From assembly GCA_050330955.1 (NCBI GenBank), contig JBHJHJ010000084.1:323-64322 (forward strand): a DNA stretch of 64,000 bases, given 5' to 3'. The translations under genes were made by a program, and so were the position numbers. Position 1 is the first letter of the stretch. The number at the start of each line of letters is the position of its first letter. Under the pieces are notes generated by a model. It saw only the letters and a list, made by a program, of their open reading frames with translations. It was not told the DNA's origin and did no database searches. Origin of the DNA: Elainellaceae cyanobacterium (GTDB lineage: Bacteria > Cyanobacteriota > Cyanobacteriia > CAKZMO01). Of this stretch, positions 3,828 through 54,525 are shown one piece after another.

Positions 3828-5426
3828 ATGTCCCGACACCTGTTTGCAGCTGAAGCCCTGGCCCACATCCCCAAAATTTTGACGCTGCAGGACCGCAACC
3901 CCCACAGCCCGACATACGGCTGCTTCGATCGCAACTTTTGGCAATATAAAATTATTGATTTTCCCAGCGGCATGGCCCAAGAATTTGTGCTGCCGCTGGC
4001 CTTGGTCTACGCGCTGCCCCTCCCCGACAATCCTTACTACCAGCAGCTTGCCCTACGCCACTGGATCGTGGCGGGCATGCACTACGCCGCCCGCAGTGCC
4101 CACCCCGACGGCTCCTGTGACGACTATTTCCCGTTTGAGCGCGCCAGCGGAGCTGCGGCCTTTTCCCTGCTGGCCTGCCTTGACAGCTACCAACTGCTGG
4201 CCACAGAAGACCCGGCGCTGCTGCAGTTCTTTCAGCGGCGCGCCGATTGGCTGGCCCATCACCAAGAGAGCGGCAGGCTTACAAATCACCAGGCTTTGAT
4301 TGCCCTTTGTCTGAGGCTGGCGGGAGATCTGCTGCACACCGATCGCTGGCAGGGGGCGAGTCGCGATCGCCTGGCCCAGGTGCTGAGCTGGCAAAATCCT
4401 GAGGGCTGGTTTCAAGAGTACGAAGGCTGCGACACCGGCTACCAGACCCTGACTATTGGCTGCCTAGCGCGGCTGTATGACCTGCAGCCCACCAGCGAAC
4501 TGAAGGACGCGATCGCCAAAGCCGTGCTGCTGACGGCCCACTTTATCCACCCCGATGGCTCCTACGGCGGGGAATACACCAGCCGCAACACCTACAACTA
4601 CTTTCCCCACGGGTTTGAGCGGGTGGGCCGCTGGCTGCCGGAGGCCCTCAGCATCAATGATCAGTTTTTGAGCGGTCTCGGTCAGGGGCGCGGGGCTTGC
4701 TACGCCGATGACCATATTGTGGGGCACCACACCTGGAGCTATTTGCTGGCCTGGCGCAATTTTGTAGAGACGCGGTCAGGGGCACCACTGCCCCAAGAGC
4801 GGCTGTGGCTCCCCGAGGCCCGCATCCTCGTGGAGCGCCGTGGGGACACCACCCTCTATGTGGCACTTAATAAGGGCGGCGTGTTTAAGCTGTTTCGGGG
4901 CGATCGCCTCGTGGTCTCCGACACCCAGATCTCCCTGCAGGTGAGGGCAGACGGCGGTGTGAAAAATGCCGTAGGCCACCTGGTAGGCCAGTATCCGGTT
5001 GAGGTGGGGGAGAATCAGATTACCATCAGCGGTGCCCTAGGCTGGGCGAAACAGACCCAAATGACGCCCCCAAAGCTGATGGTGCTGCGCATCGTCATGC
5101 TGACGGTGGGTCGGTTCTTCCCTAACCTGGTGCGTCGCCTGCTGCAAAAAGTGCTGATTACTGGAAAAACTGCCGCTCCCTTTCAATTTGAGCGGCAGTT
5201 TCAGTGGCGAGAGGGCAAGTGGCACGTGCGCGACGCCATCACCCCTACCCAGCCAGAGGGCTGGAGCCGGGTCACGGCGGCTGGCATCGCCCCCGCTCAG
5301 ACCTCGATCTACGTCGTCATGAGCCGCACATACCAGCCGGGGCAGCTACAGCCCTGGCTGAATTTGGCGGCTCATGTGCGCAAGCTCGAACCCAATGAAC
5401 CGTTAATTCTGGATCGATCGCTCTAA
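3828..5426 (+). CDS. Conserved hypothetical protein, 532 aa, no motif recognised
   Basis: Long ORF with native-looking codon usage and several HIP1 sites. The repeated hydrophobic/aromatic helical pattern (NHQALIALCLRLAGDLL, GYQTLTIGCLARLYD) hints at an alpha/alpha toroid, but this is only an impression. Confidence 0.7.
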   Translation: MSRHLFAAEALAHIPKILTLQDRNPHSPTYGCFDRNFWQYKIIDFPSGMAQEFVLPLALVYALPLPDNPYYQQLALRHWIVAGMHYAARSAHPDGSCDDYFPFERASGAAAFSLLACLDSYQLLATEDPALLQFFQRRADWLAHHQESGRLTNHQALIALCLRLAGDLLHTDRWQGASRDRLAQVLSWQNPEGWFQEYEGCDTGYQTLTIGCLARLYDLQPTSELKDAIAKAVLLTAHFIHPDGSYGGEYTSRNTYNYFPHGFERVGRWLPEALSINDQFLSGLGQGRGACYADDHIVGHHTWSYLLAWRNFVETRSGAPLPQERLWLPEARILVERRGDTTLYVALNKGGVFKLFRGDRLVVSDTQISLQVRADGGVKNAVGHLVGQYPVEVGENQITISGALGWAKQTQMTPPKLMVLRIVMLTVGRFFPNLVRRLLQKVLITGKTAAPFQFERQFQWREGKWHVRDAITPTQPEGWSRVTAAGIAPAQTSIYVVMSRTYQPGQLQPWLNLAAHVRKLEPNEPLILDRSL

Positions 5427-10264: not shown

Positions 10265-12172
10265 ATGGCGCCTGGTTTGGCAGCACCCGACTCAGCGTCA
10301 GACAACCCGATGAACGAGACCTGCTACTGCCTGAACCGCACCTGCCCCCGTCCTGAGAACCCATTCAGCGCGACGCGGTGCGGCGGCTGTGGATCGCTGC
10401 TGCTGCTGGGCGATCGCTACCGAGCGCTAAAGCTTTTGGGCCAGGGGGCCACGGGGCGAACGCTGCTTGGGATAGATACCCGGCCCGACGGTGCGCTGGA
10501 CCAGCCGCAGAAACGCTGCGTGATTCAGCAGAGCTGGGCCGAAAATCACTTTAACCGCCGCCAATTCTCGCGATATGTCCGGCGCCTCAGCCAAATCAGC
10601 CAGCATCCCCAGGTACCCCAACTGCTCGACGTACTGATAGAGGGCGATCGCAGGTCTCTGATCTGGGAGTTCGCTGACGGCGTTTCTCTAGCGGCTCATC
10701 GAGCTGAAGCAGTCTCGTTCAGTGAGGTGCAGGTGCGCCATCTGCTCTGCAACCTCCTACCGGTGCTGGCAGTGGTCCATGAGGGCGGCCTGATCCACCG
10801 AGACGTGAAGCCCGAGAATATTATCCATGTCTTTCCCCAATGCCCCTGGCTGGTGGACTTTGGCGCTGCCGTCTCTATTGGGCACAGCACCGCGCCAGCG
10901 GGAGACGCCCGCTACGCCGCGCCGGAGCAACTATCTGGCGAGCCCGTATTTTCGAGCGATTTGTACAGCATAGGGATGATTGGCGCCGAGCTGTTGACGA
11001 TGGCGTCGCCCTTCGACCTCTATGCGGCAGCGCAAACCGATGGCGGGTGGCAGCAGTATTTAGCCACGCCGGTTAGCTCAGGTCTGGCGCAGATTTTGAC
11101 TCAACTGCTGCGACCGGCCCCCCAGCGCTACCGCACGGCTGCCGCAGTGCTGGCGGATTTACGGGCTTTGCCGGACCTTGAGCTTGCCCAACCGCCTCCA
11201 TCGTCAGTAACTATAAAATCAGCGACTGTGGAACAGGGAGTGCCCAGCAATGAGTGGACCTGCCGCCACAGATTAAAAGGTCACCGTGGACCTGTTACGG
11301 CGATCGCCGCCAGCGAGAGCTACGTGGTCAGCGGCGGCAGCGATGGCGCGATTCGCGTCTGGTCCTGGGCGGGGGAGTGTCGTCAGGTGATTCAAACCCC
11401 CTGGTTTGGCAAAGGCCACCGCGATCGCATCAGCACCCTCAGCATCAGCGGCGATGAGCTGACGCTTTTGAGTGGCAGCGATGACGGCACCTTGTGCGCC
11501 TGGTCTTTGGTGGACTACGGGCAGCAGACCTGCCTGCAGAGCCCCGCCTGGGGCGTGAGTGCGATCGCCGTTATGCCCCAGGTCTGGATTAGTGGTGACG
11601 CCAGCGGCGCCCTGCAGCTCTGGGACGAGGAGACTGGCCGAGCCATTGAGCGCTGGCAGTCGCACCAGGCTAAGGTCAGCGGTCTTGCCATTAGCCCCAA
11701 CCTCAAGATTCTGTTGAGCGGCAGCGCCGACGGCACCGTTGGCCTTTGGGACTTGGGTACAGCTCAGCGGCGCCATCAGCTTCAGGTCGGCGCCGCCGTT
11801 ACCGCTATGGCGGTGCTGCCCCGCTGGAACGTGCTCACTTTGGGAGATGACCAGGGACAGCTCCAGATTTGGGATTTGATTGAGATGAGGCGGCTGCGCA
11901 GCTTGGCGGCCCACCAAGGCCCCATCACTAGCGTGAGCGCCTCACCCCGTCAGCTTGCCAGCGGCGGCGACGACGGCCAGATTCACTTTTGGCAAATCCC
12001 CGGCGTTTCAGAGGGTTCGTTTGAGCAGCAGCTTTTGACGCACCCCCAGAGCCTGACGCGGCAGATTACCCGCTCCCACGACTGGTCCGTGAACGCGATC
12101 GCCTTTAAGCCAGCCGGAGATTGGCTCGCCAGCGGCAGCGCCGACGAGACGCTGTGCCTTTGGCGGCGATAA
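10265..12172 (+). CDS. Ser/Thr protein kinase with an N-terminal 4-Cys ribbon and C-terminal WD40 repeats
   Basis: CYCLNRTCP..RCGGCGS prefix. Kinase motifs HRDVKPENI, VDFGAA and YAAPEQ. At least seven WD-like repeats (GHRGPVTAIAAS..GSDGAIRVWS and others). Confidence 0.9.
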   Translation: MAPGLAAPDSASDNPMNETCYCLNRTCPRPENPFSATRCGGCGSLLLLGDRYRALKLLGQGATGRTLLGIDTRPDGALDQPQKRCVIQQSWAENHFNRRQFSRYVRRLSQISQHPQVPQLLDVLIEGDRRSLIWEFADGVSLAAHRAEAVSFSEVQVRHLLCNLLPVLAVVHEGGLIHRDVKPENIIHVFPQCPWLVDFGAAVSIGHSTAPAGDARYAAPEQLSGEPVFSSDLYSIGMIGAELLTMASPFDLYAAAQTDGGWQQYLATPVSSGLAQILTQLLRPAPQRYRTAAAVLADLRALPDLELAQPPPSSVTIKSATVEQGVPSNEWTCRHRLKGHRGPVTAIAASESYVVSGGSDGAIRVWSWAGECRQVIQTPWFGKGHRDRISTLSISGDELTLLSGSDDGTLCAWSLVDYGQQTCLQSPAWGVSAIAVMPQVWISGDASGALQLWDEETGRAIERWQSHQAKVSGLAISPNLKILLSGSADGTVGLWDLGTAQRRHQLQVGAAVTAMAVLPRWNVLTLGDDQGQLQIWDLIEMRRLRSLAAHQGPITSVSASPRQLASGGDDGQIHFWQIPGVSEGSFEQQLLTHPQSLTRQITRSHDWSVNAIAFKPAGDWLASGSADETLCLWRR

Positions 12173-12198: not shown

Positions 12199-13371
12199 CT
12201 ACTTCGCGCCAAACCCGAGGCCGCGATTTTTAGACGGCATACACACGCAGGCTTCGATCTGCGATCGCAGGGTCTCGTGGTCGAGGTCTTGGCCGATGAG
12301 GACGAGCTGCAGCTTGGGCTCGCCTTTCCACTGCTCGTCATCTAGGGTAAAGCGCTTGCCGCTGAGGTGGAAGATGTGACGCTTAGGGCTTTCGTCAAAC
12401 CACAGGATGCCCTTTGCCCGAAAGACGTTTTCCGGAAGCTGGTTGTCTAAGAAATTCTGGAACTTGCGAATAGCGAAAGGCTTGTCGCTCTGGAAAGAGA
12501 GCGACGTAAAGCCATCGTTTTCTAGGTGGTGGGAGTGGTGGTCGTGGTTGTGATGGTCATGATCGTGGTGGTCGTGATCGCAGTCATGGTGGGCCTCGTG
12601 GTCGTGGGCGTCGTGATCATGGGCCTTATGTCCATGAGCGCCGTGATCATGAGCATCATGATCGTGGCTGGCTTCCTTAGAGTCTTTGAAATACTGCTCC
12701 GATTCAAACAGGCCCACGCTCAGAATGAGCGGCAGCGGTACCTTACACTGGCTAGTTTTCAAAATGCGGGCGTCTGCCTTCACCTTGCGCAGGCTGTCTT
12801 CCAGATAGGCTAGCCGCGCCTCGTCAACCAGGTCGGTTTTGTTGAGCAGAATCGTGTCGCCGTAGGCCACCTGATTTTGTGCCGCCTCGCTGTTGAACAG
12901 GTCGAGACTATAGTTCTCGGCGTCGACCACGGTCACGATAGAATCCAGCCGGGTCATATCCCGCAGCTCAGTGCCCAAGAAGGTCAGCGCCACCGGCAGC
13001 GGATCTGCTAGCCCCGTGGTCTCTACCACGAGGTAGTCCACATTATCTTGACGCTCCAGCACCCGATGGACGGCCTCCATCAGGTCATTGTTGATGGTGC
13101 AGCAAATACAGCCGTTGCTCAGCTCTACCATGCCGCTGTCGTCACCCGCCTCGACAATCAAATCATTGTCAATGCCAATTTCCCCAAATTCATTAACCAA
13201 AACCGCCGTCTTCAGGTTTTCCTGGTTGGTCAAGATGTGATTGAGCAACGTCGTCTTACCGCTGCCTAGAAAGCCTGTGATGATGGTGACCGGCAAACCG
13301 CGCTTTTCAATCTGCATCGCGGGTCCCGGTGCTGGCGTCTGGCTATTTTGGGGCGTTGCCATAGATGTCAT
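12199..13371 (-). CDS. COG0523-family GTPase metallochaperone (CobW/ZigA-like) with a His-rich insert
   Basis: Walker A GFLGSGKTTLLNHIL, the CxCC motif GCICCT, and a His-rich tract at aa 236-282. Confidence 0.9.
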   Translation of the reverse strand: MTSMATPQNSQTPAPGPAMQIEKRGLPVTIITGFLGSGKTTLLNHILTNQENLKTAVLVNEFGEIGIDNDLIVEAGDDSGMVELSNGCICCTINNDLMEAVHRVLERQDNVDYLVVETTGLADPLPVALTFLGTELRDMTRLDSIVTVVDAENYSLDLFNSEAAQNQVAYGDTILLNKTDLVDEARLAYLEDSLRKVKADARILKTSQCKVPLPLILSVGLFESEQYFKDSKEASHDHDAHDHGAHGHKAHDHDAHDHEAHHDCDHDHHDHDHHNHDHHSHHLENDGFTSLSFQSDKPFAIRKFQNFLDNQLPENVFRAKGILWFDESPKRHIFHLSGKRFTLDDEQWKGEPKLQLVLIGQDLDHETLRSQIEACVCMPSKNRGLGFGAK

Positions 13372-14628: not shown

Positions 14629-17600
14629 ATGGATTTTACCGACGTATTTATCTCCTACGGGCGCGCTGACAGCAAGGCCTTTGCTGCCAAACTTGAGCAA
14701 TATCTGCTTGCTGCAGGACTGAGAGTTTGGGTCGATTTCAACGATATTCCCTCAGGCGTTGACTACCAGAAGCAAATCGACGCCGGCATCGACCGAGCCG
14801 ATAACTTTATTTTTGTGATTTCGCCCCACTCGGTCAATTCAGTCTACTGCCTCAAGGAGATTGAGCACGCCCTCAAACGCAATAAGCGCATCGTGCCCCT
14901 GCTCCATGTTGAGGCGATTACCCGAGAGACTTGGAATCAGCGCCACCCCGAAGGTACTGCTGCTGAGTGGGAAGCCTACCAGGCCGCAGGTAAGCACTCT
15001 AGCCACGGGAACCTTCACCCGGACATCAGCAAAATTAACTGGGTTTGCTTTCGAGACGGCCTGGATGACTTTGAGCAAGCCTGCCAAAACTTGCTTCATG
15101 CGCTGGATCGCCACAAAGACTACATTCGCCAGCACACCGTTCTGCTGGTCCATGCGCTCACCTGGGCCAAAAATCAGAGGCAAACGCGCTACTTGCTCGT
15201 AGCCGAGGCCCGAGAGCAGGCAGAAGCCTGGCTCCTCCAGCGCTTTAAGGAACAAGCGCCCTGTACTCCGACAGACCTCCACTGCGAGTTCATCGCCGAG
15301 AGCATTAAAAACGCCAACAATCTGCTGACGCAGGTGTTTGTCGCCCACGCCGAGCAGGACGTTGAGGTGATGGAGACCATTCGGCGATCGCTCTGGCGAC
15401 AGGGATTCACGGTTTGGACTCGCCAAACGGATATTCAGACTGGAGAAGACTTCCAGAGCGCCGTTGACCGCGGCATTGAACAGGCAGACAACGTTGTCTG
15501 TTTACTCTCTCCTGCCGCCCTGCAGTCCGCCAACTGTCAGCGCGAGCTGAACTATGCCTTGGCATTCCACAAGCGGGTCATTCCTGTGCTCGTTGAAGCT
15601 ACTGACGCCACCGTTATCCCATCAGTTTTGCGGGATCTGCAGTACATCGATTTGACGGACAACGTGCTAGAAGCTGACTACCTGCTGGACGAAAGCCAGC
15701 TTCTGAGGGTGCTGCAACAAGACGCGACTTATTATCAAGAGCATAAGATCCTTCTGACTAAAGCTCTGAGGTGGACCCGTCAGGACCGTAATCCCAGCAT
15801 GCTATTGCGCGGGTATAATCTGCGCCATGCCGAGGCCTGGTTAAAGACCGCTGAAAGCCGGACTCAGCATCGGCCCACAGCAATTCAAGCCGAGTTTGTT
15901 CGGGCCAGTTTAAACCATACGCAGCCCGACTCTTTAGACGTTTTTATATCCTATTCCCGGGCCGATGCTGATCTAGCGCGGCGCTTGAATGAGGCCCTGC
16001 AAATTCAAAATAAGACCACCTGGTTTGACCAAGAGAGTATTGCCTCCGGCGCTGACTTTCAGCAAGAGATCAACCGGGGCATTGAAATCTCAGACCATTT
16101 CCTGTTTATCCTCTCTCCCCGTGCAGTGCGATCGCCCTACTGCATCGAGGAGGTATCCTACGCCGCTAAGCTCAACAAGCGCATCGTTACGGTGCTGCAC
16201 CACTCAGTGGATAGCGACGAGCTACCTCCCCAGTTGGCGAAGATACAGTGGATAGACTTTAGGTCCAGCAGTAGCTTTACCGCCAGCTTTAAAGAGCTCA
16301 TCCGCACCCTGGACACGGATGTAGCCCACCTGCGAATGCACACCCGCCTGCTGACGCGAGCCATTGAGTGGAAGCAGGAAAATTTTGACCGTAGCCTGCT
16401 GCTGCGGGGCAAACCCCTGGCCCGGGCCCATCAGTGGCTGACGCAGGCAGAAGATAAATATCCGCCCCCTACGGAGCTGCACGTTGATTTCATCATTACC
16501 AGCCTTGGTCCGTCCTACTATCTGAGGGCTCAAGGTCCCAAAATCAAGTTTCGCTGGGTGGTTTTAATTGGCGTTATTGTCGCCCTTCTCGTAGAAGTGA
16601 CTCGCCTGCTGGGATGGACTCAGGGGCTAGAACTCGCGGCGTATGACCAGCTTTTGCGCATGCGCCTCAGCGAGCCGCAGGATGATCGCCTTCTCATTGT
16701 TCAGGTCGATCAGAACAGCGTCCGCTGGCTGAAGGAGAGCATGATTGCGGGAAAATATCAGCCCGGGATTGGCACTATCCCCGACCGGGCGCTGGCCGAT
16801 GCCATCGAGTACCTCAATGACAACGGGGCCCGGCTCATTGGCCTCCACGTTCACCGAGACTTTCCGGCAGGGCCCAACCTAACGCGGCAGTTTCAGCAAC
16901 TCGATAACCTAATTGCTATCTGCTGGCACGGGGGCAATTCAGACAGCGGAATCACTCCTCCCGATGAGGTGCCCATAGCGCGGGTCGGCTTTGACGATCT
17001 GCTGAGTGATGAGAGCGGCGAAATTCGCCGGTACCTGCTGAAACGGGCCGCCAATCGGGACTTTTGCGAGACCCAAGACAGCTTTAGCCTGGCGCTGGCC
17101 CGGCGATACCTTGCCCAAGCGGGACTGAGCTATACCGACCCACAGGAGGAAAATCCCGATTTAAAGTTAGGTCAAGTCACAGTTCCTCAGCTCTATCGAG
17201 GCAACAGCGGCGGCTACCGGCGGCAGGTTGAAGGCCCTGATGGGACCGGCGGAACCTTCGGCGGGTACCAGGTTCTGATTAACTTTCGCCAGCATGAGGG
17301 GGATCCAAACCGATTCGCTCCCATTGTCACCTTAGAGGCCGTGTTAGAAGGCGAGGTTTCTCCTAGGCAGATTGCCGATCGCATTATCGTCATCGGTCTT
17401 TCAAACCAAAATGCGAGCTATTTTGATACGCCCTATGGCCGCATGCCCGCCATCGTCCTGCAGGGGCAGATGATTAGCCAGCTGATCAGCGCAGCGCTAG
17501 AGGGGCGATCGCTGATTTGGTCCTGGTCACCGGGGGGAGAGTGGCTGTGGATTTTAGGCTGGTCTTTAATGGGGGGACAGGCTCTATGGGGCTGCCGGCG

Positions 17601-17868
17601 GCTACGAGCGGGCTGTGCCGTGGCGGTAGGTAGCGCGCTGCTGCTGTTTGGCGTTTGCTATTTTGTGCTGGTTCAGTTCGGAGGCTGGATTCCGCTGGTG
17701 CCACCGGCGCTGGCGATGCTGGGCACTGGGCTGTGGGTCGGGCATCTGACGTCTCGCCTACGCCTGCGCAAGCTGGCTGAGACGAACCAAAGGCTACTGA
17801 GGATCAATCACAAAAGCGATCGCAATTCTATCCAAGATAACCTGACGCGACGTAAAGATTTTGCGTAA
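14629..17868 (+). CDS. Membrane protein with three tandem N-terminal TIR modules fused to a CHASE2 ectodomain
   Basis: TIR starts DVFISYGRAD (aa 5), QVFVAHAEQD (aa 235) and LDVFISYSRAD (aa 436). TM helix at about aa 642-662. CHASE2-like start LELAAYDQLLRMRLSEPQDDRLLIVQVD. Three C-terminal TM helices (about aa 965-1050). No kinase or cyclase output. Confidence 0.85.
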   Translation: MDFTDVFISYGRADSKAFAAKLEQYLLAAGLRVWVDFNDIPSGVDYQKQIDAGIDRADNFIFVISPHSVNSVYCLKEIEHALKRNKRIVPLLHVEAITRETWNQRHPEGTAAEWEAYQAAGKHSSHGNLHPDISKINWVCFRDGLDDFEQACQNLLHALDRHKDYIRQHTVLLVHALTWAKNQRQTRYLLVAEAREQAEAWLLQRFKEQAPCTPTDLHCEFIAESIKNANNLLTQVFVAHAEQDVEVMETIRRSLWRQGFTVWTRQTDIQTGEDFQSAVDRGIEQADNVVCLLSPAALQSANCQRELNYALAFHKRVIPVLVEATDATVIPSVLRDLQYIDLTDNVLEADYLLDESQLLRVLQQDATYYQEHKILLTKALRWTRQDRNPSMLLRGYNLRHAEAWLKTAESRTQHRPTAIQAEFVRASLNHTQPDSLDVFISYSRADADLARRLNEALQIQNKTTWFDQESIASGADFQQEINRGIEISDHFLFILSPRAVRSPYCIEEVSYAAKLNKRIVTVLHHSVDSDELPPQLAKIQWIDFRSSSSFTASFKELIRTLDTDVAHLRMHTRLLTRAIEWKQENFDRSLLLRGKPLARAHQWLTQAEDKYPPPTELHVDFIITSLGPSYYLRAQGPKIKFRWVVLIGVIVALLVEVTRLLGWTQGLELAAYDQLLRMRLSEPQDDRLLIVQVDQNSVRWLKESMIAGKYQPGIGTIPDRALADAIEYLNDNGARLIGLHVHRDFPAGPNLTRQFQQLDNLIAICWHGGNSDSGITPPDEVPIARVGFDDLLSDESGEIRRYLLKRAANRDFCETQDSFSLALARRYLAQAGLSYTDPQEENPDLKLGQVTVPQLYRGNSGGYRRQVEGPDGTGGTFGGYQVLINFRQHEGDPNRFAPIVTLEAVLEGEVSPRQIADRIIVIGLSNQNASYFDTPYGRMPAIVLQGQMISQLISAALEGRSLIWSWSPGGEWLWILGWSLMGGQALWGCRRLRAGCAVAVGSALLLFGVCYFVLVQFGGWIPLVPPALAMLGTGLWVGHLTSRLRLRKLAETNQRLLRINHKSDRNSIQDNLTRRKDFA
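14638..15108 (+). other. TIR module 1 (domain-level annotation)
   Basis: DVFISYGRAD..FIFVISPHSVNSVYCLKEIEHAL. The C-x-x-E Glu is at aa 77. Confidence 0.7.
15331..15723 (+). other. TIR module 2 (domain-level annotation)
   Basis: QVFVAHAEQD..VVCLLSPAALQSANCQRELNYAL. The C-x-x-E Glu is at aa 306. Confidence 0.65.
15934..16314 (+). other. TIR module 3 (domain-level annotation)
   Basis: LDVFISYSRAD..FLFILSPRAVRSPYCIEEVSYAA. The C-x-x-E Glu is at aa 508. Confidence 0.7.
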
Positions 17869-17907
17869 ACCGATGCAGTCCCGATTCATTACGACTTAAA
17901 TAAAGCT

Positions 17908-20442
17908 ATGAAATGCTCTCTAATGCTTATAGTGGCGCTATGTTTTAGCGCTGTCCCTAGGGTTGCTACAGCGCAGACCGTGCTTCCAGACGAAGCTGAT
18001 GCGGCCCGCTGCGCTAGGGCTTCGGCTTCGGAGAGTGCATCCCTCAATGGCTCGCCGGCCCGCGAGCTGGTGGAGAGCGCCAACCGGCATCTTGCCGCCG
18101 GGCGACTGGATCAGGCTCGCCGGGGGTTCAAAGCAGCAATCGACAGGGACGGGGCCTTAGCTGAGGCCCATTTTGGGCTGGGGCTGACCCTCACCCAGCT
18201 CGTCAATCGCGAGCAAATCCGCACCCAAGCGCCTCAGGACCAGCTTGCTCAGCGCGCAGCAGCGGCCTACGAGCGGGCGATCGCCCTCAGCCCCAGCGCC
18301 AGGGCATATCTAAACCTCGGGCAGATTTTGGCCTACCTGGGGCAGGACCAAAACGCCCGCCGCGCTTACACCTGCGCCAACGCCCTCCACCCACTAATCC
18401 GCAGGGTGGCTCAAGAGCCAGACGCCGTGGGCACCCGGGATCTAATCGACGCCGGGCGGTGGCTCCGGCGCCAAGGGCTGCGTGAAGAGGCGCTAGAGCT
18501 TTATAGTCTGGCCATTGAGAGCCCCCGCGACGACCAGGAGGTCAATCTGGCAGCAGCCTACAACGGCCGCGGCGTGGTTCTCTCGGAGCTAGACCGCGTT
18601 GATGCGGCGATCGCAGACTACGAGCGAGCGATCGCCCTCAGCCCGGCTCCGACGCCCTACGTGAATCTAGTCAACCTGCTCCAGTACGCCAACCGCCGCG
18701 ACCAGCTTACCCAGGTCTACGCCGACCTAAAAGCCTTCCTATTGGAACAGCTCAACACCGTAGAACAGCCGCCCCAGCGCGAATATGGCGCAGACGGTGT
18801 TGTAGACTTTTTCCTCAACCGCGCCACGTTCTTATCGGAAAATCAGCCCTACTACGCCCTCTACATCGATCTGTTGATGAACTGGCACAACGACGAGCCC
18901 GAGGCCGGTTTCGATCAGATTGCGCTCCAGGTGAGCGAGCGGGCAAGGGCTCGGTCGCTGCTGGAAGTGCTGACAAAATCCAGCTACCAGCAGAGCCAAA
19001 ACGATGCTGCCGTCGCGCCGGAGCTTATTCGGCGGGAGCGATCGCTGCAGGCGGAGATTTCGCGCAGCGAAGCTCGGTTTCAGCGCAGCACGCGGGCGCT
19101 AGAGGGGCTGCTGGTGGGGGCTGCGGCTGACCTAGAGCGCCAGCGGCAGCAGCTTTTGGATGAGGCCTCGGCAGCGGAGTCGGAGTACTTTGACCTCACG
19201 CAGCAGCGCAGCGCGGTGCTGGCCGATATTCGCAAAGTTGACCCAGACTATGCCAACATTCTCCAGCCTAAAGCGCTATCCGTTGAGGCAATTCAGCAAC
19301 TGCTGCCTGAAGATGACGAGACTCTGGTGCTCCAGTACTGGCTGGGGGAAAATCGCAGCTACCTATGGGCCATCTCTCGCGACAGCTTCAGCAGCTACGA
19401 ACTGCCCGATCGTCAAGCAATCGAAAGCCTGGCTCAGCAGGTCCACAGTTACCTCCAGGTTCCCAATCAGACGAGACGGGCCCTAAATCCAGCCGACCAG
19501 CTCAGCCGCTGGCTAATTGGCCCCATCGCCAATCAGCTCGATGACCAGCGCTTGGTGATTGTCGCTGACGGCGCCCTCCATTACCTGCCCTTCGGCGCCC
19601 TGCCAAACGAGCCCGTTCCTGAAGACGAGCGGGACGATTGGCCCGACCCGCTGCTCGCCAATCATGAGGTGGTCAACCTACCGTCGATGTCTGCCCTTTC
19701 CGCCCTACTCGGGCGTCAGCCTCAGCAGGGCGCAGATCTGAAGCTGGCGGCGATCGCCGATCCGGTCTTTGCTCGTGGCGATCGCCGCCTAAGCCGTCAA
19801 GCCTCCGGCGCTGAGGGACCGGCCCGCAGCCGAGATACCGTCAGCCGCCTGCTTGGCGCCCGGCAGGAGGCGGAGGAGATTATAGCAGAGGCAAAAGAAG
19901 CAGAGTTAGACACACTGGCTTGGATAGACTTCGACGCTAGCCGCGAAAACGTCCTCAGCGGCGCCCTGCAAAACTATGACATCATCCACTTTGCGACTCA
20001 CGGGGTCCTCAACGACCAAGACCCCACCCAATCTGGCCTAGAACTCTCTCGGTTTAACCCAAACCAAGAGCCGCAAACTGGACTGCTGAGCTTCTCTGAT
20101 ATTTTCGGTATGAATCTCGCTGCGGATTTAGTCGTGCTCAGCGCCTGTGATACAGGGCGGGGACCGGTGCTCCAAGGGGAAGGCATTGTAGGGCTGACCC
20201 AAGCGTTTATGTACGCTGGGGCAGATAGCGTCATCGTTAGCCTTTGGCCCGTGGAAGACCAGGCCACGCGAGATCTGATGGTGCGCTTTTATGATGAGCT
20301 GCTAGACGATGGCCACGCCCCAGCGGAGGCGCTGCGTGCGGCTCAAATGGCTATGTTTAAGCGACAAGACAACGGCAATCCCTACTTCTGGGCCGCTTTC
20401 ACCCTGCAGGGCCGCTGGGATCAGGTGTTTGAAGTTGATTGA
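17908..20442 (+). CDS. Secreted TPR-repeat CHAT-domain (caspase-fold) protein
   Basis: N-terminal signal-like MKCSLMLIVALCFSAVPRVATAQ. TPR-like AYERAIALSP / DYERAIALSP repeats. CHAT dyad context IIHFATHG (H698) and LVVLSACDTG (C747). It starts 39 nt after the TIR-CHASE2 stop. Confidence 0.85.
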   Translation: MKCSLMLIVALCFSAVPRVATAQTVLPDEADAARCARASASESASLNGSPARELVESANRHLAAGRLDQARRGFKAAIDRDGALAEAHFGLGLTLTQLVNREQIRTQAPQDQLAQRAAAAYERAIALSPSARAYLNLGQILAYLGQDQNARRAYTCANALHPLIRRVAQEPDAVGTRDLIDAGRWLRRQGLREEALELYSLAIESPRDDQEVNLAAAYNGRGVVLSELDRVDAAIADYERAIALSPAPTPYVNLVNLLQYANRRDQLTQVYADLKAFLLEQLNTVEQPPQREYGADGVVDFFLNRATFLSENQPYYALYIDLLMNWHNDEPEAGFDQIALQVSERARARSLLEVLTKSSYQQSQNDAAVAPELIRRERSLQAEISRSEARFQRSTRALEGLLVGAAADLERQRQQLLDEASAAESEYFDLTQQRSAVLADIRKVDPDYANILQPKALSVEAIQQLLPEDDETLVLQYWLGENRSYLWAISRDSFSSYELPDRQAIESLAQQVHSYLQVPNQTRRALNPADQLSRWLIGPIANQLDDQRLVIVADGALHYLPFGALPNEPVPEDERDDWPDPLLANHEVVNLPSMSALSALLGRQPQQGADLKLAAIADPVFARGDRRLSRQASGAEGPARSRDTVSRLLGARQEAEEIIAEAKEAELDTLAWIDFDASRENVLSGALQNYDIIHFATHGVLNDQDPTQSGLELSRFNPNQEPQTGLLSFSDIFGMNLAADLVVLSACDTGRGPVLQGEGIVGLTQAFMYAGADSVIVSLWPVEDQATRDLMVRFYDELLDDGHAPAEALRAAQMAMFKRQDNGNPYFWAAFTLQGRWDQVFEVD
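19525..20412 (+). other. CHAT protease domain (domain-level annotation)
   Basis: LVIVADGALHYLPFGAL .. HFATHG .. LSACDTG .. PYFWAAFTLQG. Confidence 0.7.
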
Positions 20443-20463
20443 AACCCGCTGAATATGATGCTA

Positions 20464-21366
20464 TCAAAGTGAGGCCTCATCGCGGCTGCAGTACGAGGCT
20501 AGAGGGGCTTGGGCGATCGCCATCAGCGCCTCCTCCGCCGTAATCGTCTCCCCGGTCTCAGTCTGCAGACGGTCCTCATCTTCCAAATCTTCTAGAGCGT
20601 CGTCCACCTCAACATCGCCCTGAGTCAATAGGGGCGTCCAGTCTAAGGAGTCTTCGCTGCAGCTCAGTTCAGCGATGCCCGTCACCATGTCGTACCATAG
20701 GTCCGCCCGCGCGTAGCATTCAACGGCGCTGACCTTGGCGGCTTCGCCCCCGTTCGCTTCCCCCGCAGCAAGACATTCCGTTAGATCTTCATCAGGCAAA
20801 ATCCGACGAACTGTGCTGTCGACCGAGCCTAGGACAGCGCTTGAGTCATTGCCCTCAACCTGGCAAACCACCTCTACATACCAGCGGTATTCTTCGCCTG
20901 CGGCTAAGGACACTGGCGCAGAAACGTGACTTATGCTGGGCTCCTCAGGAATTGAAAAGCTGCCCCGGTAAATTTCGTTGGCATCAGTAATATCTGTGAG
21001 GGTCAGGCTGATATAGAGATCACGTCCCTCCGCCACAATCGCTTGGCTGTAGGGTGAGTAGAACCAAAAAATGGGCTGATCTGAGAGAGTCAGAGCTTCT
21101 CGACTGCCCTTTGGGACCAGCGCCACAATGGGGAGGACAGGGCGCTGGATCAAACAGCCCCGCGCAGCGCCACCGGCAATCCGATTTCCAGGAGGACGGC
21201 TGTCTGGTCTAGGGGGATCGAAATAGTCCCTAACCCGCCCGACCAAGTCAGATAGAGGGTTAGCTTGAACTGGGGCAGCCCAGAATAGGGAGAACATGCT
21301 TAGCGCAGTCAATCCACACAGGATTGAGAGCAATCGCAGAGGGCGCTGCTTGGTTTGGGTTGCCAT
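20464..21366 (-). CDS. DUF928-like secreted protein
   Basis: I prefer the ATG at 21366 (MATQTKQRPLRLLSILCGLTALSMFSLFWAAPVQA signal). DUF928-type motif PPRPDSRPPGNRIAGGAARGC, then PIFWFYSP and EEYRWYVEVVC. The longer GTG ORF runs to 21420. Confidence 0.75.
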   Translation of the reverse strand: MATQTKQRPLRLLSILCGLTALSMFSLFWAAPVQANPLSDLVGRVRDYFDPPRPDSRPPGNRIAGGAARGCLIQRPVLPIVALVPKGSREALTLSDQPIFWFYSPYSQAIVAEGRDLYISLTLTDITDANEIYRGSFSIPEEPSISHVSAPVSLAAGEEYRWYVEVVCQVEGNDSSAVLGSVDSTVRRILPDEDLTECLAAGEANGGEAAKVSAVECYARADLWYDMVTGIAELSCSEDSLDWTPLLTQGDVEVDDALEDLEDEDRLQTETGETITAEEALMAIAQAPLASYCSRDEASL

Positions 21367-21514
21367 AGAGGAAATTACGTTAGGGGAGCAGGGTTTCTCC
21401 CCTATTATCTGCGAGTCCACTCAAATCCTCCACTTCAGACGTTACACTGCCTTCTGACACTAGCAAGCTCGCAGTTTGGAGCCCTAAATAGATAGATTGC
21501 TTCACCACGCTGAC

Positions 21515-29840: not shown

Positions 29841-32066
29841 GTGACTTCTAATCGAGCCAAGCTACAGGTGCTGATTGATACGCTTGATTCAGCGCTCGAA
29901 GATCCGTCAACGCCTGAGGCGAAGGCGCAGCTGCAGTCGGCGATCGCCCAAACCCGGCGCTACTTGGCCGATTTACAGCGCGAGGGAGCCGATTCACCCG
30001 AGGCCAGCGCTCAGGAAGTTCTGCAGGCGGTGGTCCAAGAGATGGGCTACCTGCGAACCAACATGATTCAGCCGCTGCGCGAGGAGATCACCCAGCTTCA
30101 CGACGAGCGGAAGACCCTAGCGAACAGCGTTCGCCAGCTGCAGCAACAGCAGCAGCACATCAGAGAGTCTCAACAGCAGCAGATGCTCCGGGACTTTATG
30201 CAGTCCCTAATGGGTCGACTGCAGGATCAAATGACGACCCAGGTGGTGCAAGCGATTTCACTCATGCAGCCCCAGCTACCCACCGGCGGCGTGAATGGCG
30301 AGGAGTTCTCACAGCTGAGTCCAGCGGAGCAGGCCGAGCAGCTGCGGCTGCTCCAGGCAACCTCAAACGAGCTTATGCTCAAAATGGACGCCACGATGCG
30401 GGTTGTGTTCGACTCACTACAAACCACCGTCGACAGCTATCGAGACTCCCTAGGCCAGGGCCTTGAAAAAATGCATAGCCTCGGACAGCAGGGCGAAGCG
30501 CTGTTCACGGCCCTAGTAAACCGTCTAGCCAGTCAGCTCGGGCGCGAAGCCTCCCAATATCTGAGCCAATCGCTCCACGATGGGGAGTCGTTTCAGCTTG
30601 GGGGTACGGGGATCGGGGGAGACCGACTGCTGCCTACCGTTGGACCAGCCGCTTTTTCTGAGACGGGCAACGCGGCTAATGACACGCCTGGCGCTGGGAC
30701 AGCGGCCGAGCTTCCCGAAGAAGCCCTATCCGCTGAGCAAATTGACCAGCTTCTGCGTCAAAACCTATCCCAGTCGTTGACAGAACCGAGTGTTGAGGCC
30801 GGCCCTGCGCCATCCCCACAGGAGGCCCCGCCCAGCCAGCAGACAGATAGCCCAGAAACAGACGAGCTGATTGACCAAATACTGCACGAGCTAGAGGCTG
30901 ACATCGACGCCATTGGCAACAACCTCAATCTCAACCTAGACGAGGTTGACTTGGCCCCGCCCTCGCCTGAAGCCGATGAGGTCACGGCCGATGAGGTCAC
31001 AGCCGATGACGATTTGGAGGCGATCGCCCTGTTTGAGCTGGCGGAAGATGGGGTGATAGTCCACGAGTCCGCCAATCTGAAAGCCCAGCCCCACGCGCAG
31101 ACTGGGCCAGAGCCAGAGCCAGATAGCCCCGCCGAGGATGAGCGCAATAGGCCCACTCCAGAAGGCAGCGCCAGTCCAACCTCCAGCGCTGAAATCGCCG
31201 CATTCTACGCGGAGTTTCGGGCCGCAACCGAAATGGATTCTGACCAGACCGCTGATAGCCCCGCGGCAGAACCTGCGGCGGAGCCCACCGCGAAGAGAGC
31301 CATTGACGAGGAGAGCCGTAATCTAGCCCCTTCTACCGTAAAGGCTTCAGACGATTCGGGCGATTCGGGCAATTCGGGCAATTCAGACGCTCAGATAGAC
31401 ACCATCAGCCGCCTGTCCGATCTTATCGATCCGAACCTGCTGATTCAGATGGGGACTGAGGGTATTTCCGGCACAAATAGCTCATTTACCATGGCCTCTC
31501 TCGGAGAAGATCTGTTGGCCACCGGCAGAGATAGCGCCAAGCCATCCGTTGACCTCGACATCGACCTCGACCAGCTCACAGCCGATCTATCCCGCATTGA
31601 GGCCCGCGATGGAGGGATTTGGGAGGAATCTCTGACGGCCTCCGAACCCTTCGAGCCGCCGTTTCAATTGCCCCCTGATTCAGAAGCCCAGCAAGACAAT
31701 CCTGACTTGGAGACCGTCGTACCCCCGCAAGCCTCTGCTCCCAGTGAAGCTCTTTTAGAAGATACGTCCCCAAAAGACGCGCTGCCAGAAGACGCCCTGC
31801 CAGAAGACGCCCTGCCAGAAGATTTAGCACGCCATGACGAGCTAGAGCCATTCCCCGATGAGGACTCGACAATCGACGAAATTGCGGCCCTATTTGCGGC
31901 CCTTGAGAACACTGAGGATGGCCCATCGGAGCGAGCTACCATCGCTCAGCAAACCCTCGCAGATTTGCTAAAGCCGGCCAGTGGGGGGAGCTTCTCAACC
32001 CCGCCAGACGACAGCGCCGATAGGGACGTGAACACCGAGCCAGAAGATGACGAAAAAAAAAAGTAG
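29841..32066 (+). CDS. Acidic coiled-coil / low-complexity protein, 741 aa
   Basis: GTG start. Gln/Leu-rich N-terminal coiled coil followed by a Glu/Asp/Pro/Ala-rich tail with short tandem repeats (DEVTA x2, GDSGNSGNS, DALPE x3). It ends EDDEKKK inside an A10 run. Confidence 0.75.
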   Translation: MTSNRAKLQVLIDTLDSALEDPSTPEAKAQLQSAIAQTRRYLADLQREGADSPEASAQEVLQAVVQEMGYLRTNMIQPLREEITQLHDERKTLANSVRQLQQQQQHIRESQQQQMLRDFMQSLMGRLQDQMTTQVVQAISLMQPQLPTGGVNGEEFSQLSPAEQAEQLRLLQATSNELMLKMDATMRVVFDSLQTTVDSYRDSLGQGLEKMHSLGQQGEALFTALVNRLASQLGREASQYLSQSLHDGESFQLGGTGIGGDRLLPTVGPAAFSETGNAANDTPGAGTAAELPEEALSAEQIDQLLRQNLSQSLTEPSVEAGPAPSPQEAPPSQQTDSPETDELIDQILHELEADIDAIGNNLNLNLDEVDLAPPSPEADEVTADEVTADDDLEAIALFELAEDGVIVHESANLKAQPHAQTGPEPEPDSPAEDERNRPTPEGSASPTSSAEIAAFYAEFRAATEMDSDQTADSPAAEPAAEPTAKRAIDEESRNLAPSTVKASDDSGDSGNSGNSDAQIDTISRLSDLIDPNLLIQMGTEGISGTNSSFTMASLGEDLLATGRDSAKPSVDLDIDLDQLTADLSRIEARDGGIWEESLTASEPFEPPFQLPPDSEAQQDNPDLETVVPPQASAPSEALLEDTSPKDALPEDALPEDALPEDLARHDELEPFPDEDSTIDEIAALFAALENTEDGPSERATIAQQTLADLLKPASGGSFSTPPDDSADRDVNTEPEDDEKKK
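31776..31820 (+). repeat. 15-nt tandem repeat x3 inside the CDS (encodes DALPE x3)
   Basis: gacgcgctgccagaa, gacgccctgccagaa, gacgccctgccagaa. Confidence 0.85.
32053..32062 (+). other. A10 homopolymer containing a dnaX-type A AAA AAG slippery heptamer (32057-32063), immediately before the TAG stop at 32064-32066
   Basis: Read directly: gac gaa aaa aaa aag tag. The -1 frame (cga aaa aaa aaa gta ggt ..) is open from 32051 into the next ORF. Confidence 0.9.
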
Positions 32067-54495: not shown

Positions 54496-54525
54496 ATGTC
54501 CTCTAATGTCCTGTAATGTCCTGTG
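54496..54525. repeat. 10-nt tandem repeat x3 overlapping the bcsB start
   Basis: atgtcctcta, atgtcctgta, atgtcctgtg. The GTG at 54523 or the ATG at 54529 would be the bcsB start. Confidence 0.8.

Follow-up and report, generated by a model that had tools for sequence, protein, structure and literature searches.

The three genes of the locus

Three intact open reading frames stand together in the 64-kb window, by which we mean the whole stretch of DNA analysed. The first encodes a receptor of 1079 aa (14629..17868, plus strand) that matches Pfam TIR_2 and CHASE2. It is followed after 39 nt by the gene for an 844-aa TPR-CHAT protease (17908..20442, plus strand), and the gene for a 300-aa DUF928 protein (20464..21366, minus strand) converges on the latter with the stop codons 21 nt apart. 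The first-pass annotation had described this arrangement, and the ORF listing of the window reproduces it with both gaps; Pfam profile searches also uphold its calls of TIR, CHASE2, CHAT, TPR and DUF928. One detail changes. It had taken the longest DUF928 frame, 20464-21420 on the minus strand, which reaches a GTG at 21420. That frame is present, but the ATG at 21366 is the more likely start, and the database gene call, P0121, is the 300-aa form.

The receptor

Pfam recognizes TIR_2 in three stretches of the receptor (E 6e-84). Module 1 covers about aa 4-130 (14638..15018, plus strand; Pfam and PDB alignments), with Glu E77 at 14857-14859. Module 2 covers about aa 234-360 (15328..15708, plus strand; aligned to the TIR structure 7uxr), with E306 at 15544-15546. 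Module 3, which holds the best TIR_2 stretch (aa 438-558), covers about aa 436-560 (15934..16308, plus strand; aligned to the Cat1 TIR 9mud), with E508 at 16150-16152. Repeated segments of about 100 residues separate the three tandem TIRs. Aligned with enzymatic TIRs, all three modules carry the predicted catalytic Glu. The module 1 context, SVYCLKEIEHA, resembles by eye the WVHKEIVTA stretch around E642 of SARM1. The receptor has 1681 homologues at E<=1e-10, a count that takes in TIR-WD40 proteins without CHASE2.

The array could instead be a non-enzymatic scaffold that recruits proteins and cleaves no NAD+, as in animal TLR/MyD88. Three tandem TIRs with repeated spacers could form an assembly platform, and at module 3 the residue is Glu in 55/66 homologues and Gln in 9/66. 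We consider a scaffold very improbable, since E77 is invariant (66/66), E306 is Glu in 61 of the 66, the nearest solved TIR structures (Cat1, TIR-SAVED, SARM1 and AbTIR) are all enzymatic, and relatives link the array to SLOG, a nucleotide-sensing domain.

Membrane topology was checked by hydropathy and AlphaFold2. TM helix 1, about aa 642-664 (16552..16620, plus strand), has a hydropathy peak of 2.39, corresponds to helix 2-21 of the model and has the basic stretch KIKFRW before it. The CHASE2 match spans aa 652-983 (16582..17577, plus strand; E 7e-50, 170 bits against a gathering score of 26.3). Two Cys in this ectodomain are invariant across homologues and it is modelled as an alpha/beta fold with pLDDT of about 90; a structural search gave no solved relative. 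Three C-terminal TM helices follow at about aa 970-1041 (17536..17751, plus strand), seen in the hydropathy profile and as helices 329-348, 353-378 and 385-405 of the modelled fragment. That fragment (pLDDT 90, pTM 0.89) has one TM before CHASE2 and three after, and all that comes after TM4 is a basic, cytoplasmic tail of 38 residues. With basic residues on the cytoplasmic sides, the model supports the earlier placement of CHASE2 outside the cytoplasm. The TIR array, N-terminal to the sensor, is the receptor's sole output domain, as the first-pass annotation proposed. Since the output is N-terminal and no domain follows the last TM, the signal must cross via TM1.

The two secreted proteins

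The TPR-CHAT protein matches Pfam CHAT at 3e-67 along with TPR families. Its predicted signal peptide, aa 1-22 (17908..17973, plus strand; hydropathy 2.8, AxA motif), is MKCSLMLIVALCFSAVPRVATA/QT with cleavage near ATA/QT, a call made, like our others, by hydropathy and motif heuristics rather than by SignalP or a trained predictor. The caspase-fold CHAT domain occupies aa 528-835 (19489..20412, plus strand; 228 bits). The His/Cys dyad claimed for it is intact: HFATHG lies at aa 694-699 (19987-20004, plus strand) and LSACDT at aa 744-749 (20137-20154, plus strand). Nearly all of the neighbouring CHAT genes share these motifs, and the signal peptide is conserved too.

The DUF928 protein matches its family at 4e-27 (PF06051; 96 bits against a gathering score of 26), and its signal peptide probably ends at VQA/NP. 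Predictions thus support the proposed periplasmic placement of CHASE2, CHAT and DUF928 alike. Alignments show two conserved Cys in DUF928. Immediately before the first, near-invariant one sits an Arg-rich motif, NRIAGGAARGC (aa 61-71; 21154..21186, minus strand), for which the family consensus is GRxRGGxxR..C. AlphaFold2 gives residues 51-61 and 63-66 pLDDT <50, the least confident stretch of the model, which overlaps part of this motif, a putative cleavage or docking site. By AlphaFold2 and Foldseek the fold is a beta-sandwich with a helical bundle and is not enzyme-like. It weakly resembles the TLR co-receptors MD-1 and MD-2 (Foldseek ranks 29 and 36), a likeness that goes no further than a generic beta-sandwich.

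Conservation of the neighbourhood

The species-representative genomes of GTDB yielded 80 cyanobacterial TIRxN-CHASE2 loci, with two loci in a few of the genomes. DUF928 lies directly downstream of the receptor in 51/72. Among the 37 loci with full flanks, TPS is present in 32, DUF928 in 30 (absent from 7/37), exported CHAT in 27 (absent from 10/37), ShlB in 20, SLATT in 15 and LSDAT in 12. The first-pass annotation had suggested that CHAT, CHASE2 and DUF928 cluster in cyanobacteria; this clustering is real and strong, both here and in loci anchored on DUF928. Chance adjacency of three unrelated genes might explain why no other examined locus has the window's order, receptor then CHAT then a convergent rather than co-directional DUF928. 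That explanation is effectively refuted by the conservation data, since the genes are found linked again in dozens of species-level genomes, as well as in metagenomes, in several orders and with several cytoplasmic domains.

The relatives show that three genes are not the whole account. Many add a two-partner secretion pair, TpsA/TpsB, and about 40% of the full-flank loci carry a SLOG (LSDAT) sensor and a SLATT-lysozyme membrane effector. The modal operon in the Nostocales runs TPS, ShlB, TPR-CHAT, TIRx3-CHASE2, DUF928, LSDAT, SLATT-lysozyme, each gene being confirmed by Pfam on one such locus (L061). No open reading frame of the 64-kb window matched TPS or ShlB (iterated HMMs, E<=1e-5), and SLATT and LSDAT gave no match there even at E<10. 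The window is a reduced form of the larger system, so with SLOG, SLATT, TpsA and TpsB missing from 64 kb the pathway either stops short here or has its remaining genes in another part of the genome. Two TIR-WD40 paralogues have none of these partners beside them, so the TIR array does not depend on them.

In loci anchored on DUF928, a CHASE2 gene lies immediately upstream in 43/50, and the outputs on these DUF928-linked CHASE2 proteins are varied: CHAT/caspase in 21, cyclase in 10, EAD1 in 2 and TIR in 1. DUF928 therefore tracks the sensor domain and is a general CHASE2 partner rather than a TIR-specific one. Tandem arrays of DUF928 without CHASE2 also occur. SLATT was found in 22/80 TIR-CHASE2 loci and 0/80 DUF928-anchored loci (p=9e-8), and the SLOG/SLATT pair tracks the TIR.

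The exported CHAT gene is distributed differently again. Among the DUF928-anchored loci it occurs in 14/18 with a C-terminal CHASE2 and in 1/9 of the cyclase type (p=0.003); it accompanies receptors with a cytoplasmic domain N-terminal to CHASE2 and almost never those of the cyclase type. The CHAT gene also usually adjoins ShlB/TPS or is fused to a TPS domain. TPS-CHAT fusions in relatives show the CHAT domain to be exported cargo, and exported CHAT belongs with the two-partner secretion module missing from the window.

All this might mean that two modules are merely juxtaposed, CHASE2 and DUF928 forming a receptor pair while CHAT serves two-partner secretion, for example in TpsA maturation, and has nothing to do with a CHASE2 ligand. 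The position and strand of CHAT relative to the receptor vary across loci, and cyclase-type pairs mostly do without it. However, the window keeps CHAT beside the receptor despite lacking TPS and ShlB, the 39-nt spacing between the two genes fits co-transcription, and the presence of CHAT in 14/18 loci with an N-terminal cytoplasmic domain extends across unrelated domains of this kind. We find the two-module explanation quite unlikely.

Comparison with known systems

Canonical CHASE2 sensor proteins, reportedly described by Zhulin et al. in 2003, place the sensor on the N-terminal side of a cyclase, kinase or GGDEF output. Our receptor shares with them a strong Pfam match and the plan of one TM, ectodomain and three TMs, and cyanobacterial CHASE2-cyclases also partner DUF928. 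It differs in that its output, the TIR array, is N-terminal with none C-terminal.

A similar architecture is seen in the EACC2-caspase-[variable C-terminus, e.g. CHASE2] systems of Kaur, Iyer, Burroughs and Aravind 2021 (PMC8195603), in which DUF1822 and an ECF sigma factor are the linked genes. Both place a cytoplasmic death-type domain N-terminal to TM-CHASE2-3TM and both are cyanobacterial. We find that caspase-CHASE2 genes also precede DUF928, often with an exported CHAT and a TPS gene. Our receptor differs in having TIRx3 as its N-terminal module instead of EACC2-caspase, and phmmer with a DUF1822 protein as query found no match in the window or the 80 TIR-CHASE2 loci. The term DUF928 does not occur in that paper, and its passages that mention CHASE2, CHAT, DUF1822, EACC2 or the sigma factor include no secreted CHAT protease or TPS partners.

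On the output side, relatives with SLOG and SLATT are Thoeris-like. In Thoeris types I, III and VII, SLOG and SLATT proteins are known to receive the TIR signal (bioRxiv 10.64898/2025.12.03.692087). Type III combines several TIR proteins with a SLOG effector, and type VII a TIR with the SLATT effector ThsH and a cADPR signal. The TIR modules here likewise keep the catalytic Glu, and relatives encode SLOG (LSDAT_prok) and a SLATT membrane effector beside the TIR gene. Unlike in Thoeris, the TIR protein here spans the membrane several times as a receptor, with CHASE2 as extracytoplasmic sensor and three or, in some cases, five tandem TIRs, and it is linked to secreted DUF928, exported CHAT and the two genes of a two-partner secretion system. 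Relatives encode SLOG and SLATT as separate proteins, SLATT often being fused to lysozyme, and the window has no adjacent gene for a signal-binding effector. NCBIfam ThcB4 matches the receptor at 93 bits, below its cut-off of 220 and at the TIR level only, and PADLOC ThsB gives only generic sub-threshold TIR matches.

A proposed outside-in pathway

We believe, with a probability of roughly 0.55, that these genes specify a membrane receptor pathway which runs from outside in and ends in NAD+ cleavage by the TIRs. The observations it starts from are domain content, topology, conservation of catalytic residues and gene linkage. The periplasmic CHASE2 ectodomain would work with secreted DUF928, a pairing proposed because DUF928 is its near-universal genomic partner; DUF928 would most likely be a co-receptor or a pro-ligand. 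Upstream, TPR-CHAT would cleave the exposed, Arg-rich N-terminal segment of DUF928, or the receptor ectodomain, upon a cue from the envelope or outside the cell, for which phage attack, wall damage and material from lysed neighbours are candidates. The change would be relayed via TM1 and lead to clustering of the cytoplasmic three-TIR array. The array, the sole output in the window, would then cleave NAD+, resulting in NAD+ depletion or in an ADPR-type messenger for a target whose gene lies elsewhere. In many relatives that messenger may be read by the adjoining SLOG (LSDAT) protein with its SLATT-lysozyme effector, leading to lysis. Because so many carry this pair, the data suggest that the TIR is often a signal generator rather than a terminal effector. 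In these steps we infer the identity of the ligand, the substrate of the protease, the direction of signalling and the chemistry of the TIRs.

Instead of defence, the same wiring could serve multicellular cyanobacteria in development or in communication between cells, the receptor sensing a self-made signal from the TPS/CHAT module. Kin recognition via TpsA exoproteins and programmed death of sacrificial cells for filament breakage would be examples. By record titles the TIRxN-CHASE2 system is almost confined to filamentous or mat-forming cyanobacteria, two-partner secretion exoproteins are linked to it, ordinary CHASE2-cyclase signalling proteins have DUF928 as a partner too, and the genes flanking the cluster in the window are of ordinary cellular type with none for defence. 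Passages of Kaur et al. (PMC8195603, PMC7159879) link effector-receptor fusions to a multicellular habit. Yet TIR, SLOG and SLATT together are the signature of anti-phage Thoeris-type systems, the cluster has no linked developmental regulator, and one relative locus, in Trichormus variabilis (L001), where SLATT and LSDAT adjoin the receptor homologue, also adjoins CRISPR-cas genes. We think a purpose in communication or development is unlikely.

The outside-in reading invites comparison with Toll and the TLRs, where a protease cascade, Spaetzle, Toll and TIR act in turn. The resemblance is one of analogy only: both have a TM receptor with cytoplasmic TIR, and here the genes alongside it encode a protease and a small protein, both of them secreted. 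The ectodomain, however, is CHASE2 and not LRR, there are four TM helices and not one, the TIR is N-terminal and not C-terminal, the receptor's TIRs look enzymatic and not adaptor-like, and homology is limited to the TIR domain. A full counterpart of the Toll pathway would have exported CHAT process DUF928 into the CHASE2 ligand, TIR make an NAD-derived messenger, and SLOG/SLATT-lysozyme lyse the cell, so that multicellular cyanobacteria could sacrifice cells when they sense extracellular danger; two-partner secretion would deliver the protease in relatives, and DUF928 would be the cognate ligand or co-receptor of CHASE2 generally. We think this fuller version unlikely.

To our knowledge no ligand has been established for CHASE2, a domain known since 2003, and characterised bacterial TIR systems sense infection intracellularly. 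A survey of TIR systems likewise describes detection inside the cell (bioRxiv 10.64898/2025.12.03.692087). The linkage of a TIR receptor to exported CHAT and DUF928 across many species suggests a route from outside in, as yet undescribed, that leads to a cell-death or immune output, and no description of the pathway was found in the literature searched. If true, bacteria would have outside-in TIR signalling, the logic of animal Toll receptors, and the known range of Thoeris-like immunity, and of programmed cell death among multicellular prokaryotes, would be wider. The near-obligate DUF928 neighbour would be a concrete candidate for a CHASE2 ligand or co-receptor, also for ordinary CHASE2-cyclases. 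Carriers in Trichormus variabilis, Anabaena and Nostoc would be tractable models, and in Anabaena and Nostoc strains CHASE2-DUF928 loci are found on plasmids.

The three genes and their products

The receptor gene (14629-17868, forward strand) encodes 1079 aa, and 39 nt beyond it the TPR-CHAT gene (17908-20442, forward strand) encodes 844 aa. The DUF928 gene lies on the reverse strand (20464-21420 as the longest ORF), its stop codon convergent with that of TPR-CHAT and 21 nt away. Its start is most likely the ATG at 21366, which gives 300 aa and agrees with the database gene call. The ORF positions and both gaps are exactly those of the first-pass annotation, and each of the domains it named is backed by a Pfam profile match. 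The receptor has three TIR_2 stretches (E 6e-84), and its aa 652-983 match CHASE2 (E 7e-50). The second protein has TPR families and a CHAT domain (E 3e-67, aa 528-835), and the third matches DUF928 (E 4e-27). By hydropathy, both the CHAT and the DUF928 protein begin with signal-peptide-like segments.

The receptor is a genuine CHASE2 protein in which the order of domains is inverted. In the hydropathy profile one strong TM segment stands out near aa 644-662 and a hydrophobic block near aa 970-1040, and in the AlphaFold2 model of aa 640-1045 (pLDDT 89.9, pTM 0.89) TM1 leads into an alpha/beta ectodomain, with three TM helices at the C-terminal end. Both lines agree with the earlier proposal of an extracytoplasmic CHASE2 domain. 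They also agree that the TIR array is the sole candidate output, since nothing but a basic 38-residue tail follows the last helix. A Foldseek search of the PDB with the CHASE2 model found no relative (best E 0.45), so the type of ligand cannot be guessed from its fold.

Catalytic residues

This one receptor joins its external CHASE2 domain to cytoplasmic TIR modules that keep a catalytic residue. The Glu of the C-x-x-E motif is retained in every one of the three modules, and the PDB search alignments place those of TIR2 and TIR3 opposite the Glu of the enzymatic TIRs Cat1 and 7uxr; further matches include SARM1, TIR-SAVED and AbTIR. Across 66 three-TIR homologues, module 1 has the Glu in all 66, module 2 in 61 and module 3 in 55, with Gln in its place in 9. 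Weighing the retention together with these replacements, we regard the idea that the array is a scaffold as very improbable. As for the protease, the His/Cys dyad had been described as intact, and the motifs HFATHG and LSACDT are indeed present. Both motifs recur, together with a hydrophobic N-terminal signal, in the products of nearly all CHAT genes adjoining homologous receptors.

After each TIR module comes a repeat segment some 100 residues long (window 14629-16500; aa 130-233, 360-435 and 560-640). It looks helical by eye, has a recurring motif (H-T-x-L-L-x-x-A-x-x-W ... L-L-R-G ... W-L), is conserved across both TIR-CHASE2 and TIR-WD40 proteins and matches no Pfam family.

Homologous receptors and their neighbors

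The receptor homologues that have source names are cyanobacterial, except for one Candidatus Parabeggiatoa TIR-WD40 protein. The best 120 comprise 66 TIRx3-CHASE2 proteins, 39 TIRx5-CHASE2 proteins and 15 TIRx5-7 proteins without CHASE2; those of the last group that were checked have WD40 repeats. With the CHASE2 region as query, a scan that took a single genome from each GTDB species gave 516 relatives, and the best 80 are all cyanobacterial TIRxN-CHASE2 genes. We annotated the flanks of these 80 loci with locally iterated HMMs and checked representative calls against Pfam.

The linkage of receptor, CHAT and DUF928 genes is confirmed and extended by these neighborhoods. The clustering of such genes in cyanobacteria, as suggested in the first-pass annotation, is borne out: of the 72 TIRxN-CHASE2 loci with enough flank, 51 have DUF928 as the next gene downstream in the same orientation, and CHAT is present at 27 of 37 full-flank loci. 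At the same 37 loci we find DUF928 (30), a TPS-domain exoprotein (32), a ShlB-type transporter (20), SLATT (15) and LSDAT_prok, which is a SLOG domain (12). The receptor gene is conserved beside two others, one encoding a secreted DUF928 protein and one an exported caspase-fold protease whose dyad is intact, and that this adjacency arose by chance is hardly credible. In relatives the set is enlarged by two pairs, TpsA/TpsB and SLOG with SLATT-lysozyme. The commonest complete order in the Nostocales is TPS > ShlB > TPR-CHAT > TIRx3-CHASE2 > DUF928 > LSDAT > SLATT, and relatives in Coleofasciculus, Symploca and Leptolyngbya have receptor > DUF928 > <CHAT <ShlB <TPS. The window cluster is a reduced three-gene version of this larger system. 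HMM searches found no TPS, ShlB, SLATT or LSDAT gene in its 64 kb, nor is there a DUF1822 gene, and its order (receptor > CHAT > <DUF928) is seen in the window alone among the 80 loci.

The TPS model also matched 12 CHAT proteins, and the two of these checked against Pfam are TPS-CHAT fusions, from which we take the CHAT domain to be exported cargo. The SLATT proteins beside receptors are mostly long forms; two that were checked against Pfam end in a peptidoglycan hydrolase, Phage_lysozyme at a Nostoc-type operon locus (L061) and Glyco_hydro_19 at another homologous locus (L004). These hydrolase-fused SLATT (DUF4231/SLATT_3) ORFs, L061:13386-14780 and L004:6830-8359, resemble a holin-endolysin pair in one protein, and most other SLATT ORFs adjoining TIR-CHASE2 genes share their length.

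In Trichormus variabilis (L001:1-6880) the SLATT/LSDAT/TIR-CHASE2 group directly adjoins Cas6, Cas4, Cas1 and Cas2 genes, a defense-island context that the window lacks. We rejected such a setting for the window, where the cluster is flanked by ordinary cellular genes (a kinase and a TPM-domain protein). At two further loci (L078:16588-20790 and L082:16500-20720) the TIRx5-CHASE2 and TPS-CHAT genes are followed at once by one for a TIR-WD40 paralogue, which puts a membrane and a cytosolic TIR receptor next to each other. The flanks of two TIR-WD40 paralogues contained no partner genes, which argues neither for nor against the receptor model.

DUF928 follows the sensor domain

As a single query the window DUF928 protein retrieved only itself; homologues were retrieved with a profile of 25 DUF928 sequences, and metagenomes were scanned with an alignment of 10 closer sequences. 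Among 80 metagenomic DUF928 loci, a CHASE2 gene ends within 400 nt in 43 of the 50 with enough upstream sequence. The 39 complete CHASE2 proteins adjacent to DUF928 include 21 CHAT-CHASE2, 10 canonical CHASE2-adenylate/guanylate cyclases, 2 EAD1-CHASE2 and 1 TIR-CHASE2. DUF928 therefore tracks the sensor domain whatever the output, and its pairing with CHASE2 is a result that has value in its own right. SLATT occurs at 22/80 TIR-CHASE2 loci versus 0/80 DUF928-anchored loci (p=9e-8), so SLOG and SLATT go with TIR. At DUF928-anchored loci, an exported CHAT gene accompanies 14/18 with a C-terminal CHASE2 versus 1/9 of cyclase type (p=0.003). That CHAT is part of a secretion module only, its gene lying beside TPS and ShlB genes at many loci, seems unlikely to us.

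CHASE2 > DUF928 pairs also occur on annotated plasmid loci of Nostoc PCC 7120, N. punctiforme, N. flagelliforme, Anabaena cylindrica, Picosynechococcus and Planktothrix. There the CHASE2 proteins have an N-terminal CHAT/caspase or AAA_35 domain, and the neighborhood often includes an exported CHAT, TPS, ShlB, DUF1822 or sigma-factor gene. One locus has Trypsin_2-CHASE2 > DUF928 and a POTRA-TPR-CHAT gene. In three single proteins (L095:10934-14938, L113:6528-11069 and L135:4949-8941, all reverse strand) TPR and CHAT domains are joined to parts of a POTRA/ShlB-type transporter; these are unusual outer-membrane transporter/protease fusions. DUF928 occurs outside receptor pairs too, in tandem arrays of 2-3 genes by a transglutaminase-core protein without a CHASE2 gene (L094:8174-10743 and L097:5667-7291).

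After its signal peptide the DUF928 protein has a conserved motif rich in Arg, with the consensus GRxRGGxxR..C and the window form NRIAGGAARGC; it falls partly in the lowest-confidence stretch of the model. Two Cys are invariant in the 25-sequence alignment and at least 90% conserved in a 40-sequence alignment. The modeled core, with pLDDT above 90, is a seven-strand beta-sandwich followed by a helical bundle. Foldseek gave only generic Ig-like or carbohydrate-binding-module-like beta-sandwich matches (TM 0.2-0.55), including the MtxA C-terminal domain and the RsgI4 sensor domain, and no enzymatic fold among them. The model fits a binding protein, co-receptor or pro-ligand. A likeness to MD-1/MD-2 was set aside because the Foldseek matches are too weak as evidence.

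A possible outside-in pathway

Judging from the sequences, we give a probability of roughly 0.55 to an outside-in pathway in which DUF928 and CHAT would act on CHASE2, and CHASE2 on NAD+ cleavage by the TIRs. DUF928 would bind CHASE2 as co-receptor or pro-ligand, and the protease would turn a cue into the receptor-active state, perhaps through a cut in the Arg-rich segment of DUF928. Relayed through TM1, the signal would cluster the TIRs, which would then cleave NAD+. The specific order protease, DUF928, CHASE2 is a tentative suggestion and rather doubtful. In relatives a SLOG protein may read the TIR product and activate lysis by SLATT-lysozyme; in the window the TIRs might deplete NAD+ directly or signal to a target encoded elsewhere. 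The same wiring could instead serve cell-cell or developmental signaling, which we think possible but not likely.

The window cluster can be likened to Thoeris-type TIR signaling joined to a CHASE2 receptor, but it stands outside every defined Thoeris type, since the window has no effector gene and curated model scores fall below threshold. PADLOC found no system-level match in the window. A 2025 preprint (10.64898/2025.12.03.692087) defines Thoeris type VII as TIR plus SLATT with cADPR and cites type III as several TIRs plus SLOG; a term search of it finds neither "cyanobacteria" nor "CHAT", and the preprint is not among the CHASE2-containing literature matches. The matched passages of Kaur et al. 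2021 (PMC8195603) describe EACC2-caspase proteins with variable C-termini, including CHASE2, encoded with ECF sigma and DUF1822 genes, and no secreted CHAT or TPS partner. The EACC2-caspase-CHASE2 proteins parallel the receptor, but its cytoplasmic module differs. The term "DUF928" is absent from that paper, which names TIR and CHASE2 separately, and open-access papers and bioRxiv yielded no other linking the two. In the same literature DUF928 appears only in PMC5587647, which noted a cluster of CHASE2, DUF928 and WD40 in N. punctiforme. The resemblance to Toll is analogy only.

Other genes in the window

WD40 repeats, carried likewise by the TIRx5-7 paralogues of the receptor, occur in two other window proteins: a 635-aa Ser/Thr protein kinase-WD40 fusion about 2.5 kb upstream of the receptor gene (10265-12172, forward strand) and a second WD40 protein (37480-39270, reverse strand). 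Sensor kinases and cellulose-synthase genes lie elsewhere in the window. For three large forward-strand ORFs (3828-5426, 29841-32066 and 48567-50591; 532, 741 and 674 aa) Pfam gives nothing at E<=1e-5. A 390-aa protein (12199-13371, reverse strand) appears CobW-type GTPase-like by eye and has a long His/Asp-rich insert, HDHDAHDHGAHGHKAHDHDAHDHEAHHDCDHDHHDHDHHNHDHHSHH, which suggests a metal chaperone. The cellulose synthase pair (54523-59630, forward strand), BcsB and a GT2 catalytic subunit with a PilZ domain, is unrelated to the receptor cluster.
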